A stretch of DNA of 64,000 bases from IMG/VR virus record IMGVR_UViG_3300042465_006264; one strand, written 5' to 3'. The position numbers and the translations under genes were made by a program. How positions within the stretch are numbered: position 1 is the stretch's first letter; each line of letters opens with the position of its first letter. The DNA is from an uncultured virus (IMG/VR IMGVR_UViG_3300042465_006264) (taxonomy: Duplodnaviria; Heunggongvirae; Uroviricota; Caudoviricetes). Positions 44,992-54,097 of the stretch are shown piece by piece. Under the pieces are notes generated by a model. It did no database searches and had not been told where the DNA came from. It saw only the letters and a program-made list of their open reading frames with translations.

Positions 44992-46398
44992 ATGAACTAC
45001 CTAACAAATTACTACAAGAACTTATCAGAACAATTACAAGAAAAATTAAATCACTTAGAAAAATATGTAAATTTTTTATCTGAAGATTTGGCATCCGGAA
45101 CTATAGAGCAGGGTGCTGGACCAGGTGCTGGGGTTGGAACAGGGACCACAACAAATCAAAATAACAACTCTAATGATTTAAATGCTTTGCTTCAAGCATG
45201 GGGTTCTTCAAACCCTCAATTTGATTTGAACCGAGACGGTGTAGTTGATGGAGATGATCTTGGATTGTTCTTGGCAAATATGCTTAATAGAGGACAGTCA
45301 TCACCAACTACCATGGCTAGCACTGCATTACCTGGAACACCAGAGACTGAAACTTTTGGTGGTGGTCAAAAAGCAGGTAGAGCCGCTAAAGCATTGGATC
45401 AACCAGGTCTCGCAAGTGGTAAAGTAGGAAGAATGTTTGATGCTGGGGCAGGTGTACCAGTTGGTGAAAAAAAAAATCAAACACCCCAATTAGGACCACC
45501 CAACATCCCGTCTTCAACAGGAACAAAGCAATTCAAAAATAAATTTTCTCCTAATGTATCACAAGTAAATTTAGCAAGTCCATCTCAAACCACATCTCAA
45601 ATAAGTGGTGTTCCAAGAAATGCTCCTGGTTGGAACAACACTTCAATAAATGGAACGTCACTTTATGATGCAGATGGAAATGGAGTTATTGATGGTGATG
45701 ACCTAGCAATGATATTGCAAGGTATACCTTCACCACAGCAAACCCCGCCAAGATTGAATCCAAAAACTCCGTATTCACCAGAAATAAGTCCTTCAACCGC
45801 TAAATTTTCTCCAGCAATACAATCTCCAACACCCGGAAACATTGTCAATGCTAAAGCAAAGGTAATGGCCTCTAATAAAAATAGAGGTGTTTCCCAAGGA
45901 GATGTTGAGGGGCCTAACAGAATGCCTCCAACTATGCGACCAAAAACACAAAGAGGTTTGAGCACTAGAGTTTCTTTGAGTCCGGAACAATATACAAATA
46001 TGGATATTTCACAGGGACGGGGTACTCCCTCAAATAACAATTTTGTTCAACAAGGGGGATCTTCTATTACAGGAGATATTAATGGTGACGGAATAGTTGA
46101 CAGCAATGATTTGGGTGTGCTTTTAGCAAATTGGGGTAGTGGGACACCAGGACCATGGGATATTGACGGGAACGGAATAGTTGACAGTAATGACATGGGT
46201 ATACTATTGGCTAGCTGGGGACAAGGAGCACCTCCACCACCTCCACCACCACCACCACCTCCACCACCACCACCACCAACGGAACCGGCAACAGACACTG
46301 AAACTACAACACAACAAAATACACCTTATTGGATGAGTGGAAGAACAACTGATATCGATACCCTATTCAGGGCTGGTCAACGAAGAAGAAAAAAATAA
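44992..46398 (+). CDS. Dockerin-like (EF-hand) repeat protein with MNYLTNYY leader
   Basis: DLNRDGVVDGDDLGLFLA, DADGNGVIDGDDLAMIL, GDINGDGIVDSNDLGVLLANWG, DIDGNGIVDSNDMGILLASWG; poly-Pro. Confidence 0.8.
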   Translation: MNYLTNYYKNLSEQLQEKLNHLEKYVNFLSEDLASGTIEQGAGPGAGVGTGTTTNQNNNSNDLNALLQAWGSSNPQFDLNRDGVVDGDDLGLFLANMLNRGQSSPTTMASTALPGTPETETFGGGQKAGRAAKALDQPGLASGKVGRMFDAGAGVPVGEKKNQTPQLGPPNIPSSTGTKQFKNKFSPNVSQVNLASPSQTTSQISGVPRNAPGWNNTSINGTSLYDADGNGVIDGDDLAMILQGIPSPQQTPPRLNPKTPYSPEISPSTAKFSPAIQSPTPGNIVNAKAKVMASNKNRGVSQGDVEGPNRMPPTMRPKTQRGLSTRVSLSPEQYTNMDISQGRGTPSNNNFVQQGGSSITGDINGDGIVDSNDLGVLLANWGSGTPGPWDIDGNGIVDSNDMGILLASWGQGAPPPPPPPPPPPPPPPPTEPATDTETTTQQNTPYWMSGRTTDIDTLFRAGQRRRKK

Positions 46399-47287: not shown

Positions 47288-47315
47288 TTGACTCTAAGTA
47301 TTCTTAGGCTATACT
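47288..47315 (+). promoter_or_regulatory. Promoter TTGACT-N16-TATACT of the tRNA cluster
   Basis: 9 nt upstream of tRNA-Gly. Confidence 0.75.
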
Positions 47316-47324
47316 GTGTTCGTT

Positions 47325-47396
47325 GCGGGTGTAACTCAGTGGTAGAGTGCTAGCCTTCCAAGCTTGCTGTCGAGGGTTCAAGTCCCTTCACCCGCT
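47325..47396 (+). tRNA. tRNA-Gly(TCC)
   Basis: GCGGGTG/CACCCGC acceptor; CTTCCAA anticodon loop; GTTCAAG T-loop. Confidence 0.93.
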
Positions 47397-47411
47397 TTGA
47401 CAATCGAATAT

Positions 47412-47556
47412 GCACGCTGTTCGTTATGACGAACTAGGATGAATGGCTGGCCAGCAGTCATCTGAAAAGAACTGTAGAGAGGTCCAATAACGGGTAAGTG
47501 AAGGCCGTAGCCTTCGCCTCTCCTTCTTCAAATGGGTTTAAGTCCCTCGGCGTGCT
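47412..47556 (+). ncRNA. Unassigned tRNA-like structured RNA (~145 nt)
   Basis: Ends pair (GCACGCTG/CGGCGTGC); T-arm-like GGG-TTTAAGT-CCC; several internal hairpins. Confidence 0.6.
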
Positions 47557-47563
47557 ACAAATT

Positions 47564-47635
47564 GCCACCTTAGCTCAATGGTAGAGCCTTGCTTTTGTAA
47601 AGCAGAGGTTGCGGGTTCGAATCCCACAGGTGGCT
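47564..47635 (+). tRNA. tRNA-Thr(TGT)
   Basis: GCCACCT/AGGTGGC acceptor; TTTGTAA loop. Confidence 0.93.
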
Positions 47636-47638
47636 TTG

Positions 47639-47720
47639 GCGAGTATACTCAAGCGGTCAACGAGGTCTGACTGTAAATCAGATGGCAAAGCCTACGGGAG
47701 TTCGAATCTCTCTGCTCGCA
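47639..47720 (+). tRNA. tRNA-Tyr(GTA)
   Basis: GCGAGTA/TGCTCGC acceptor; TCTGA-CTGTAAA-TCAGA; long variable arm. Confidence 0.93.
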
Positions 47721-47722
47721 TT

Positions 47723-48331
47723 ATGTACGATATCAATATCCCACATTTTTATTGTTTGTTAAGAAAAGAGCATCTTTACCAAAACAAAGATCATTTCTTT
47801 GAATATGAAAAGGTAGCAGTCTTTGGAGCACAATCCAGTGCTGGAAAGGCTTTGTTGTTTACAGTAATGTTGGATAACGGAACAATAAGAAGTAGAGTTC
47901 CAATTCATATGTTATGCAGTAAAGAAGGCCCATCAGATCCATTAGATTACTTGCAACTTTGGGATTGTTTTTCTGAAAATGTTACGGTCACAACTTATAG
48001 TTTTTTAAAGGGTGCCAGAGCAAAAGTTATATTTAAAGATAAAAGTCACTCTTGGGGAAATTATAAAATGACATTTGATTGGTATGATAACCCATACAGC
48101 AACGAACCATCTCAATACAAATGTCTTCACATGATTGAACTGGATAATGGAAATTATGCTCTACAACCAAACAATAGAATATTTTGGAAAGAAATGTCTT
48201 TTACGACCAAGCCATTTCCAGAAAAACCAGATTATAAAGTTGACACACAGGAGTATAGATGCGAGAATAAAAGCGATAGATGGATTATAAGTGATGATGA
48301 CAATTATTATTACGATATAAATCCTACATAA
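47723..48331 (+). CDS. Conserved phage hypothetical protein
   Basis: NIPHFYC..RKEHL, LQLWDCFS, LDNGNYALQPNNRI; true start lies after tRNA-Tyr. Confidence 0.75.
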   Translation: MYDINIPHFYCLLRKEHLYQNKDHFFEYEKVAVFGAQSSAGKALLFTVMLDNGTIRSRVPIHMLCSKEGPSDPLDYLQLWDCFSENVTVTTYSFLKGARAKVIFKDKSHSWGNYKMTFDWYDNPYSNEPSQYKCLHMIELDNGNYALQPNNRIFWKEMSFTTKPFPEKPDYKVDTQEYRCENKSDRWIISDDDNYYYDINPT

Positions 48332-48335
48332 TAAT

Positions 48336-48530
48336 GGTATTGTTGATATCGGATTGAAATGCGTATGACACGGGAGTTCGAATCTCCCCGGATCCACTTT
48401 ACGGGTCCGACAGGCATCGATCAGCGTAGAGTAATGAAGAAGGAGATACCCGACACGGGTAACAAGTGTCGTAAATAAACAGTTGCAACAACAAAAGCCG
48501 CACCAATGCGGATGGCTGCTTAAAGCAGTG
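48336..48530 (+). ncRNA. ssrA: Circularly permuted (two-piece-type) tmRNA; 5' boundary approximate
   Basis: T-arm and 3' acceptor strand (48372-48396) precede 5' strand GGGTCCG (48403-48409); G3:U70 pair; pk1; tag ORF 48485-48523 ending MAA-TAA. Confidence 0.88.
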
Positions 48531-48536
48531 GGGTTT

Positions 48537-48572
48537 CCCGGTTTTCCCGCGACTGAAAAACCGGGTTTTTTA
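48537..48572 (+). terminator. Intrinsic terminator after tmRNA
   Basis: CCCGGTTTT...AAAACCGGG followed by T6. Confidence 0.85.
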
Positions 48573-48589
48573 TTGCCATAAATATCTTT

Positions 48590-49102
48590 ATGCAGCACCC
48601 CAACGAGGGATTTATTAGAAGTTTTTTAGGCAAAGATAAAGCCTACAAAGAACAACTCTTGGCTGAGGAAAAAAAGCAAAGAGTAAATGAATATTTTGCT
48701 CGTAAGAAAAACAAGCAAAATGTTCTTAGAGAAGAAAATAAAAAATCCATAACAAAAACTATTGATGTTGTTTATTCAAATTCAAAAAAACAACCATTAC
48801 TAGAACAAAAAAACACACAAGATTGGCAAACTGTTCAAACACAACATGGTATTTTTTACTACAATGAAAAAACAAAAGAATGGATGAATAATTTTGGAGT
48901 TATAAAGCCATCTCTTAATGATTTCATTAGTATTTTTGATTATAATATAATTAATGATAACTTAAACAAAAAACAAAAGCCACCAGCAACTCCATCCAAT
49001 ATTCAAACTATAACCTCTATCAATGGAATTACTTTGAGTTGGCAAGATAACTCAGATAATGAAATTGAATTCCAAACTTATGGAAGAATAGAATTGATAT
49101 AA
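48590..49102 (+). CDS. Late protein ending in the N-terminal half of an FN3 domain
   Basis: ATAAATA upstream; PPATPSNIQT...ITLSWQDNSDNEIEF. Confidence 0.65.
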   Translation: MQHPNEGFIRSFLGKDKAYKEQLLAEEKKQRVNEYFARKKNKQNVLREENKKSITKTIDVVYSNSKKQPLLEQKNTQDWQTVQTQHGIFYYNEKTKEWMNNFGVIKPSLNDFISIFDYNIINDNLNKKQKPPATPSNIQTITSINGITLSWQDNSDNEIEFQTYGRIELI

Positions 49103-49106
49103 AAAT

Positions 49107-50639
49107 ATGACTTACGTATTAAACTATAACAAAGAAATTCATGATCTTTATGTATATGATTCGGAACCTGTTTTAAATTGGCAGGAAAACATATATCATT
49201 GGGCTAAACCAGTTTCTTTGAATCCAAATTTATATTTAAATTTCATAACAACTTATATACCCGGACCAATTATACCAAATATACCCGAATCAATTTTACC
49301 AACAAATGTAAATTTTTCAGGAATTGTTGCTAGAAAAAGAGGTGCAGCTTTTTTTCAAACGAATGGTAGGCCATTCGCTGAACAAGTTGCTTTTTTTAAT
49401 GGATTTGGTACAACAATGGGAAATTTTGAACCCTCGGAGCAAGGACCAGTTAATGGTGCAAATAGAGAATTAACATATGCATTAATGGCTGATGGTTGGT
49501 GTGGTGCCTATCCAAATCTCATAAATGATTATAATCATTGGAATACCGGAGATATTCCTGGTTGTTTAATAAGTCCAGCACACGTTCTAGTCGGTGGTCA
49601 TATGATAGATCCTCTTTGGGGCACACTACAAAATTCAGAAAATGGTTTAAGAGGATTTGAAGAAGGAGAACTTGGTGATACCGATACGCCATATATCAGA
49701 TTAAGATTTGTTGGTGAAGGAAATACCTATTATGATAAATTAGCATTTTTAAGTTTTTTCTTAAATAATAGCACAGGGGGTCCGGGATTAAATTGCCAAA
49801 ATAGTAGTGATTTTAGTGGTGTATTTTATGAGTCATCATATTGTCAAAATTATATTGATAATTTAAATAATAATTTTAGTAGTGATGTAACTAGTAAAGA
49901 TCTAGCAATTTTAGAATTGCGAGATCCAGATAATCCAAATGAATGCTTACCATTAACTACTGATGAATTGAAACACGTAAAAATATATAAAATTGGAAAT
50001 TTAAAAAGTTGGCCAAATGGCTCACCTTTATTTATGGTAAATCCACAGGGTGTTGTGTTAGTTTTTAGAAAAAGTAGTGGAGACTCTGTTGGGCAATCTA
50101 CTAGTCATTTTAGAAATTTTCAAGATAATTTAAATTTACCACAACCTGGATTTGTACAATTGGATGGATTGGGTGGAGAAACTGAAACATTTTTTGAAAG
50201 TCTTATATGGATAGGAGACAGTTGCAATTTTGCCTATGGTTATTATCCCCCAACGGGTGAAACTGTATTTTTAGCTTCACTCAATAGTGGACCTTCTTGG
50301 TTTTCATTTGATACAACAAATAAATTATATGATTATGAGTTTTTAAAATCTTTGAAAGAATGGATATATAACAGAATTTACGACGCAACTGGTACAGGAT
50401 ATTACATAGATTGGATTGATTATAATGGAGCAACATCAGCAATAAATTACAATGGAAATGTTTATCCATTAATTTCAACTCTACCAGCTGGAACAACACA
50501 AATATTTTATTCTGGATTCACAAGATCATCGTATCCATACGGGGTTACCTCTGGAATAACATATTCATTTATAGTTTCAGCAGCAAACTCTGCTGGATTT
50601 TCTGGATTTGCTGGACCAACAAGTACGAGAATCATATAA
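49107..50639 (+). CDS. Trypsin-like serine protease ending in the C-terminal half of an FN3 domain
   Basis: LISPAHVLVGGH, DLAILEL, GDSC; SGITYSFIVSAANSAGFS. Confidence 0.65.
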   Translation: MTYVLNYNKEIHDLYVYDSEPVLNWQENIYHWAKPVSLNPNLYLNFITTYIPGPIIPNIPESILPTNVNFSGIVARKRGAAFFQTNGRPFAEQVAFFNGFGTTMGNFEPSEQGPVNGANRELTYALMADGWCGAYPNLINDYNHWNTGDIPGCLISPAHVLVGGHMIDPLWGTLQNSENGLRGFEEGELGDTDTPYIRLRFVGEGNTYYDKLAFLSFFLNNSTGGPGLNCQNSSDFSGVFYESSYCQNYIDNLNNNFSSDVTSKDLAILELRDPDNPNECLPLTTDELKHVKIYKIGNLKSWPNGSPLFMVNPQGVVLVFRKSSGDSVGQSTSHFRNFQDNLNLPQPGFVQLDGLGGETETFFESLIWIGDSCNFAYGYYPPTGETVFLASLNSGPSWFSFDTTNKLYDYEFLKSLKEWIYNRIYDATGTGYYIDWIDYNGATSAINYNGNVYPLISTLPAGTTQIFYSGFTRSSYPYGVTSGITYSFIVSAANSAGFSGFAGPTSTRII

Positions 50640-53188: not shown

Positions 53189-53220
53189 ACAACCCCGAGT
53201 TAATCGGGGTTGTTTCTTTC
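53189..53220 (+). terminator. Terminator hairpin between convergent genes
   Basis: ACAACCCCGA-GTTAA-TCGGGGTTGT followed by T-rich tail. Confidence 0.7.
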
Positions 53221-53478
53221 TACAAAAGCAACCCAGTCTTGATGAACTACATGGTTGCCTTGATATCCATCTTTAATCTTACTTACATCCCACCAGATAA
53301 TATCACCAACTTGGATATCCTCAGTAAGTTTATTACCAACTGCTTCTACTTTTGCTGGGACAATTTTTGAACTTGATCGTTCATTGTATATAATTCCTGC
53401 AGCAGTAGTCTTTTGACCACCGATCAAAGACTTTGCGAGTATCCATTTACCTACTGGTTTCATTGGTTTGTCTTTCAT
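53200..53478 (-). CDS. groES: Co-chaperonin GroES-like (gp31-like)
   Basis: MKPVGKWIL..KTTAAGII..AKVEAVG..IQVGD. Confidence 0.8.
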   Translation of the reverse strand: MKDKPMKPVGKWILAKSLIGGQKTTAAGIIYNERSSSKIVPAKVEAVGNKLTEDIQVGDIIWWDVSKIKDGYQGNHVVHQDWVAFVERNNPD

Positions 53479-53480
53479 AA

Positions 53481-53551
53481 TTCCTTCGCTAGGATTCGAA
53501 CCTAGAAAGAGAGATCCAAAGTCTCCCGTGTTACCGTTACACCACGAAGGA
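53481..53551 (-). tRNA. tRNA-Gln(TTG)
   Basis: TCCTTCG/CGAAGGA acceptor; CTTTGGA loop. Confidence 0.92.
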
Positions 53552-54097
53552 GTGAACCTTGGCACAATAATTATTCATTATAATACCAGAGGCAGTACCA
53601 ACATTAATGCTTCTCACAGAACCATACTGAGGAATGTAAAGAAGATCATCACACATATCTAGAACGTTTTCAGGAACACCGATTTGTTCCTGCCCAAAGA
53701 TCATAATATAATGCACATTGGGGTCAAAGTCAAATGCATTTATGTCTTTTGCTTCAGGTACATTGTCAATTCCCAATAGTTTAACTTTGCCTTCATGCTT
53801 GGAAACAGTTTCTTCAATGTAGGAGCCGAGATCTTCAATGCTCCGGACATGACGAAGGTGGGTGTAGTGATGAGTACCGACAGTCCCCCGCCTATCGTAC
53901 TTTTTATTCCCATAGATTACGACTTCTTTCGCCAGAAACGCATTGCTGTTGCGTATAATGGTAGCAATATTAAAATCGTTCCCAATGTTGCAACACACAA
54001 CAGCATAGTTATGGCGCTTGCTGTCAAGATTAGTGAGTATAGCTTCGTCATCCCAATATTTATAATGGTCTATGAGATTACGGGTTTCCGGATTCAT
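53537..54097 (-). CDS. TrmH/SpoU-family RNA 2'-O-methyltransferase
   Basis: NIATIIRN, FGQEQIGV, YIPQYGSVRSINVGTASGI (SPOUT motifs). Confidence 0.9.
   Translation of the reverse strand: MNPETRNLIDHYKYWDDEAILTNLDSKRHNYAVVCCNIGNDFNIATIIRNSNAFLAKEVVIYGNKKYDRRGTVGTHHYTHLRHVRSIEDLGSYIEETVSKHEGKVKLLGIDNVPEAKDINAFDFDPNVHYIMIFGQEQIGVPENVLDMCDDLLYIPQYGSVRSINVGTASGIIMNNYCAKVHSFVV

Follow-up and report, generated by a model that had tools for sequence, protein, structure and literature searches.

The window analysed here, a 64,000-nt stretch of DNA from an uncultured virus, raises the question of whether its phage carries a working two-piece tmRNA, and whether a gene whose two tRNA-like halves lie six nucleotides apart is as strange as it first appears. 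The window is that of a T4-like phage and encodes a gp43 polymerase, clamp, clamp loader, UvsX, helicase, primase and an Hc2 head-closure protein. Its DNA polymerase shares no more than 42% identity with the enzymes of cultured phages (cyanophages), and a blastn search against the INPHARED cultured phages returned only a 28-nt tRNA match. An earlier note, made from the sequence, had proposed a circularly permuted, minimal phage tmRNA and had suggested that it be checked with ARAGORN, with covariance models and by covariation in related phage genomes. Both programs call a permuted tmRNA: ARAGORN placed one (tmRNA*) at 48305–48614 in a scan of the window, and the Rfam family tmRNA_permuted (RF04321) matched 48336–48523 with 52.8 bits against a cut-off of 47 (E 1.8e-7). 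This score is lower than that of most long-spacer relatives (57–98), and the gathering score was passed by all 20 relatives tested. The encoded order is permuted, the 3′ tRNA-like half preceding the 5′ half, and the architecture was found once in the window and in none of 200 resampled windows that approximately preserved dinucleotides. Plain minimum free energy folding of 48336–48575, a method blind to pseudoknots, was weak (z −1.7). The locus is made up of the following elements.

47288–47720 (+), promoter-like site (47288–47315) and tRNA cluster (Gly, Thr, Tyr)
47723–48331 (+), 202-aa ORF assigned to PHROG 3704 (label ferredoxin) without a Pfam hit; it stops 4 nt upstream of the tmRNA
48240–48268 (+), sigma-70-like promoter match inside the upstream ORF, 10/12 and a consensus match only (9 sites found, 3.7 expected)
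48336–48396 (+), acceptor piece, corresponding to the 3′ part of a standard tmRNA but first in the encoded order; about 61 nt without the added CCA, its 5′ end predicted from the closing helix and from where the Rfam match starts
48336–48341 (+), strand of the helix joining both pieces, partner 48445–48450 (covariation, 40 sequences)
48360–48368 (+), strand of helix 2a, partner 48421–48428 (covariation)
48372–48388 (+), T-arm of 5 bp with loop TTCGAAT (covariation)
48389–48396 (+), 3′ acceptor strand (48389–48395, U70 at 48393) and discriminator A48396; CCA not encoded
48397–48402 (+), 6-nt spacer CTTTAC, comprising the CCA position and the intervening segment; probable remnant after loss of a structured insert
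48403–48409 (+), 5′ acceptor strand; G48403 is the predicted end of the RNase P product
48410–48420 (+), D-loop-like single strand, by analogy the SmpB-binding region (alignment to RF04321)
48451–48486 (+), first pseudoknot (pk1), stem 1 48451–48456/48466–48471 and stem 2 48459–48463/48482–48486
48487–48496 (+), A-rich single strand of 10 nt from pk1 to the resume codon
48497–48523 (+), tag frame, most likely AAPMRMAA and stop from GCC48497, with an overlapping hairpin (48498–48511) at its start
48516–48528 (+), hairpin with the stop codon TAA (48521–48523) in its loop; 99% paired, two-sided change in one of five pairs
48528–48571 (+), probable second pseudoknot (48528–48532/48546–48550, stem 48537–48545/48557–48565), then a T run

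Much of the original description holds to the nucleotide. The T-arm, the 3′ acceptor strand with A48396, the CTTTAC spacer, the 5′ acceptor strand completing seven pairs with G3:U70, the D-loop-like strand and the TAA within a CTGCT/AGCAG hairpin all lie where the earlier note had put them, and CCA is indeed not encoded. The tRNA-like domain is intact and of the alanine type.

We gathered relatives by pattern scans of IMG/VR and metagenomes, using a script filter for the T-arm, a 7-pair acceptor stem and the tag layout of the family. After removal of chance matches and of loci cut by contig ends, the set comprised 181 loci, or 93 distinct genes, among the matches listed; the seven acceptor pairs are the script's filter and not an independent finding, and the motif patterns used bias the set toward conserved tags. 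A narrow short-spacer pattern gave three loci (L018–L020), and matches in three sequencing runs, two of them probably DNA, were contigs of relatives. All 93 genes keep G3:U70 and none encodes CCA, while the acceptor stem occurs in 11 variants. In an alignment of 40 family sequences, two-sided changes were found in four of the five T-arm pairs (100% paired), in five of the six pairs of the closing helix 48336–48341/48445–48450 (100% of cells paired) and in seven of seven pairs of helix 2a (95.7% paired), counts that are not independent events because the aligned sequences are kin. Given the covariation in the closing helix and helix 2a, the two pieces covary with each other. The covariation that had been called for is thus present in the T-arm, closing helix, helix 2a and stem 1 of pk1, and the AA-ending tags of the family show synonymous variation. 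Judged by sequence comparison, purifying selection is acting across the family, and the calls, covariation and conservation support the central proposal of a circularly permuted phage tmRNA that is predicted to be functional.

The pseudoknot upstream of the tag had been drawn from the pairings ACCC/GGGT and GACAC/GTGTC, and only the latter survives. It lies inside stem 1 (CGACAC/GTGTCG), in which three of six pairs show two-sided changes across the 40 sequences. ACCC/GGGT has two-sided change in none of its four pairs, and two of these are broken in 8 of 40 sequences; these pair counts rule it out as a pk1 stem, and the same bases instead close the molecule against its 5′ end in the closing helix. 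Stem 2 of pk1 (GTAAC/GTTGC) is 99.5% paired in the 40 sequences, with one-sided changes only.

Reassigning pk1 also bears on the resume codon, which had been placed at GCA48485 and so falls inside stem 2. In 47 of the 93 distinct genes the equivalent of this GCA does not share the frame of the AA-stop, and 15 of those 47 have GTA instead, which rules it out as the resume codon of the family. An 8-codon tag starting at the next GCY is intact in all 93. The strand from pk1 to this codon has a length of either 10 nt (46 genes) or 11 nt (47 genes), and a scan with a structured spacer RNA described below (module A), which placed no constraint on the tag region, likewise gave both lengths. ARAGORN picks the upstream GCA in members with the 10-nt strand. 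For E. coli, the available part of one study gives 11 nt between pk1 and the resume codon and reports that A86, at position −4, fixes the frame and that U85C is harmless (PMC2481249). The clade of the window lacks the UA signature at −5/−4 and has CA there, which is tolerated in E. coli. We consider it likely that translation resumes at GCC48497 in this gene, with the tag AAPMRMAA; we put it no higher because every member of the clade has both candidate codons in frame and because the hairpin at 48498–48511 overlaps GCC48497. GCA48485 would give the tag ATTKAAPMRMAA, which is in the same frame here and has the same C-terminus. The family uses 14 tag variants across its sub-lineages, all ending in AA after a hydrophobic residue, the conventional ssrA degron.

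The region after the tag had been read as a terminator that closes a gene of about 195 nt from which pk2–pk4 were lost. Two mutually complementary motifs, GTGGG and CCCGC, occur together in 53 of the 55 distinct 3′ ends. The sequence of the hairpin stem around CCCGC has been replaced wholesale between sub-lineages with its pairing kept; the short stem that the two motifs would form is invariant, with no two-sided changes. The supposed terminator is therefore probably a second pseudoknot, and we leave it at probably because one of its stems does not vary. With this layout the gene extends over about 230 nt, from 48336 to about 48566. Part of the older reading may stand, in that the pseudoknot and its T run may double as a terminator in the lineage of the window; many relatives have a separate terminator-like GC hairpin 3′ of the probable pseudoknot. 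The 3′ hairpin of the window aligns with that of the betaproteobacterial model RF01850. According to the available part of a study of two-piece tmRNAs, two pseudoknots flanking the tag are their typical state (PMC3985003). Since this layout is usual, and since many permuted tmRNAs of phages have a short spacer or no encoded CCA, the label "minimal" is not supported for the gene.

The same holds for the suggestion that so short a spacer would need unusual processing. A loosely defined search for tRNA-like domains in permuted order, with spacers of 0–14 nt, gave at least 120 loci; among the matches listed, 114 passed pairing filters, at least two of them false positives from tRNA arrays. Again among the matches listed, there were 96 distinct short-spacer phage sequences with many different tags; 46 of these had a spacer of 6 nt or less, and CCA was absent from 40 of the 46 and from 61 of the 96 overall. 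The part of the RF04321 seed at hand includes bacterial genes with 5, 7, 7 and 8 nt from the discriminator to G1, CCA included. In the YrlA RNA of M. smegmatis, the accessible sections of the report describe RNase P cutting a loop-closed 7-bp acceptor stem, after which CCA is added (PMC4201824). Permuted tRNAs have spacers of 1–74 nt, and the available text states that how the shortest are removed is open (PMC3978253). From these cases we infer that the 6-nt spacer needs no special enzyme.

Most relatives carry something larger in the same position. The spacers of the 93 genes comprise 61 copies of module A, there 71–98 nt long, 8 of module B, two 39-nt inserts and 22 short spacers. Module A is a kissing-loop RNA of 65–98 nt, made of two hairpins with complementary loops and an optional third hairpin, with two-sided changes in 15 of 27 pairs, one kissing pair among them; it is carried by L025 (464–534), L049, L246 and 58 further distinct genes. 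Its pattern matched 55 viral loci, 52 of which lie in the tmRNA spacer of the family. With a model of module A, the spacer copy was the only one found in three of five records, and no copy was found in the window (best 9.9 bits). Module B, known from five sequences to have a tRNA-mimic-like fold with an acceptor-like stem and a T-like arm, is 122–172 nt long and is carried by L087 (413–534), L029, L317, L324, L331, L298, L340 and L345. Its presence in several separate sub-lineages suggests a mobile cassette. In an Rfam search of the spacer RNAs, modules A and B were covered by no family besides the tmRNA models. To our knowledge, the topology of module A fits none of the twister, HDV-like, pistol, hammerhead and hairpin ribozymes or the ZTP, FMN and cobalamin riboswitches.

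In a tree built from 89 gene bodies with the spacer removed (184 columns), which is limited by midpoint rooting and by recombination of phage genes, the 8-member short-spacer clade of the window (support 100/99) is nested in a larger starred clade (96/99) that otherwise consists of module A and module B genes, and short spacers need at least four changes on the tree. Because the clade nests among insert-bearing relatives, the most parsimonious reading of the tree is that the 6-nt spacer arose by secondary loss of a dispensable structured insert of 71–172 nt. The six spacer letters of the window are identical to the last six of module B in L087, where they come directly after a CCA repeating the acceptor end, a pattern consistent with deletion between short repeats.

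Upstream, the tRNA cluster and the tmRNA are probably co-transcribed. The PHROG 3704 ORF between tRNA-Tyr and the tmRNA is present in some relatives and absent from this site in many, and in others a tRNA-like RNA takes its place. Uncalled tRNA-like RNAs, about 85–105 nt long, lie directly upstream of the tmRNA in L001, L002, L049 and L055 and end 3–5 nt before it; their 3′ processing could create the tmRNA 5′ end. Within the window, another tRNA-like element, called by neither ARAGORN nor Rfam, lies at 47412–47555 between tRNA-Gly and tRNA-Thr and has a closing stem, a D-like hairpin, an expanded middle and a T-like arm. The tRNA-Ile(TAT) that ARAGORN calls at 49190–49284 (−) falls within a 510-aa ORF of the opposite strand, lacks Rfam support and is probably false. 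A SpoU-family RNA methyltransferase (53537–54097, −) and a GroES-like protein (53200–53565, −) are encoded beside tRNA genes, and the higher-GC family members L280, L315, L324, L331 and L294 have an ORF of about 350 aa near the tmRNA that appears GMP reductase-like by eye.

We consider it likely that the locus encodes a functional two-piece tmRNA with which a T4-like aquatic phage keeps ribosome rescue running during infection. The tmRNA would be transcribed together with the tRNA cluster, and host RNase P would cut the 7-nt loop closing the acceptor stem, at the junction of C48402 and G48403. The 6-nt trailer would then be trimmed and CCA added after 48396 by the host nucleotidyltransferase, leaving pieces of about 64 nt and about 165 nt that remain paired. 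Host AlaRS would charge the RNA with alanine, host EF-Tu and SmpB would load it on stalled ribosomes, translation would resume at GCC48497, and the AA end would direct the tagged product to a host protease.

The same RNA could be processed and active and yet, instead of supplementing rescue, out-compete the host tmRNA and alter what becomes of tagged proteins or how stalls are sensed. The tag differs between sub-lineages in its 14 variants, and the accessible part of the report on Methylophilales phage Melnitz proposes selective tagging there, untested (PMC9004378). SmpB was found in none of five partial phage records (24–76% complete) and in none of 39 window ORFs scanned with Pfam, a scan outside which most ORFs under 150 aa fall; going by the five records, the RNA would share the SmpB of the host. 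All 14 tags, however, end in the conventional AA degron and no non-degradative mark is present among them, and we regard host manipulation as improbable. A different role would follow if the 6-nt spacer kept the acceptor stem closed, so that the RNA is never cut or charged and titrates SmpB to block host trans-translation. The portions at hand of the relevant papers describe a phage DS6A RNA consisting only of a TLD that inhibits tmRNA (PMC11915505, PMC4131195) and YrlA RNAs that stay uncut (PMC4201824). Yet the uncut YrlAs are attributed there to a missing 7-bp stem, which the RNA of the window has, and bacterial ssrA genes with 5–8 nt spacers stand in the available seed rows. Conservation of G3:U70, pk1, the open tag and the 3′ structure is, moreover, just as strict in lineages with short spacers as in those with long ones, and a decoy of this kind seems very improbable. 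We give hardly any credence to a decayed remnant or duplicated integration-site fragment that is permuted in appearance only. Fragments of tmRNA are known at the ends of islands and prophages and the Rfam score is modest, but each half is complete and the two covary, which largely refutes this reading; in addition, the gene belongs to a T4-like phage and stands there in a tRNA cluster, its conservation extends over 93 distinct genes, and no second T-arm follows it downstream.

Where the family of this two-piece tmRNA came from is harder to say. Its members score 18–26 bits with the alphaproteobacterial model RF01849 (best 25.7, cut-off 50); with the betaproteobacterial model RF01850 the window reaches 38.8 and relatives at most 61.5 (cut-off 84), and with the cyanobacterial model RF01851 the best score is 42.3 (cut-off 70), for the tRNA-like part only. 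None of five records passes any of the three, so the family may derive from an independent permutation in phages. No one-piece form was found among 83 metagenome loci, 61 of which parsed as permuted and 4 more did so by eye, the rest being incomplete. Six exact 9-letter strings from the 5′ end of the family were absent from the part of the permuted seed at hand, a weak test given the alignment gaps. An exact 21-nt pk1 pattern matched a single Alistipes MAG contig among GTDB genomes, one without a tmRNA, and was dismissed as a chance match. In L271 and L316 the coding piece of the family adjoins a tRNA-like domain whose T-loop is non-standard and of the kind found in alpha-type seed rows, which suggests exchange among phage tmRNAs.

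The only hint to the host comes from a 468-aa dockerin/EF-hand-repeat protein at 44992–46398, which has a poly-proline tract and a domain nearest Planctomycetota clusters; it had three matches, the single named one being a Phycisphaerales protein. The host may, on this hint, be a planctomycete. The unrelated phage permuted tmRNAs L143, L183, L124 and L148 have a 5′ part like the 3′ region of one-piece tmRNAs and are candidates for further separate permutations; their tags resemble what we take to be planctomycete tags. A doubtful, though not negligible, joint reading is that the family forms a fourth, phage-borne permuted lineage infecting planctomycetes (Phycisphaerales) that themselves have a one-piece tmRNA, and in which the spacer is an exchangeable cassette releasing a second functional RNA and the window shows an empty slot. 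If the cassette part were true, maturation of the tmRNA by RNase P and by the 3′ cut would at the same time free the spacer RNA, either a kissing-loop RNA some 65 nt long or a tRNA mimic of some 110 nt; if the host has a one-piece ssrA related to the coding piece, this would be another independent opening of the loop and would support the idea of repeated selection for the two-piece form.

Two-piece tmRNAs of phages are already in print, and the supposedly strange traits of this one are ordinary. In the available part of one report, 53 of 133 unique phage tmRNAs are two-piece, 50 of these 53 from aquatic phages (PMC9004378), and the accessible text on a 2025 tmRNA database counts 79 phage and 11,946 permuted sequences and mentions a tRNA-Ala gene within the intervening sequence of a permuted tmRNA (PMC11915505). 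Our literature search, with several supplements and the database file outside it, found no account of the present family or its spacer RNAs. What the locus adds is a phage family of two-piece tmRNAs that is both widespread and unannotated, together with a corrected annotation of tag and pseudoknots. The family offers a natural series of spacers of 5, 6, 12, 39, 71–98 and 122–172 nt on a nearly identical tmRNA body, a test set for the shortest loop that RNase P can open and for the role of the spacer RNAs. The interest that remains lies in those RNAs of the relatives and in the origin of the family.

Set beside known systems, the RNA resembles M. smegmatis YrlA in its T-arm followed by a loop-closed 7-bp acceptor stem; YrlA, by the sections at hand, has a Ro60-binding module and no tag frame and is a precedent for processing only (PMC4201824), and the Rfam search of the window gave no match to Y RNA families. 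The layout of pk1 is that of E. coli pk1, with an A-rich strand after both, and the distance from pk1 to the resume codon (10 or 11 nt, against 11 nt) matches E. coli tmRNA. Among the lineage models the betaproteobacterial RF01850 scores best and runs likewise from the closing helix through pk1 and the tag to the 3′ hairpin, although window and relatives stay below its cut-off, as given above. The window does exceed the gathering score of the RF04321 class, whose available seed rows include bacterial genes of 158–163 nt with 5–8 nt spacers (PMC11915505); the short-spacer examples inspected there encode CCA, whereas the family never does (0/93). A parallel in setting is phage Melnitz, an aquatic T4-like myophage that likewise has a permuted ssrA; its gene groups with those of Alphaproteobacteria in the part of the report at hand (PMC9004378), while the family of the window falls below the RF01849 cut-off.
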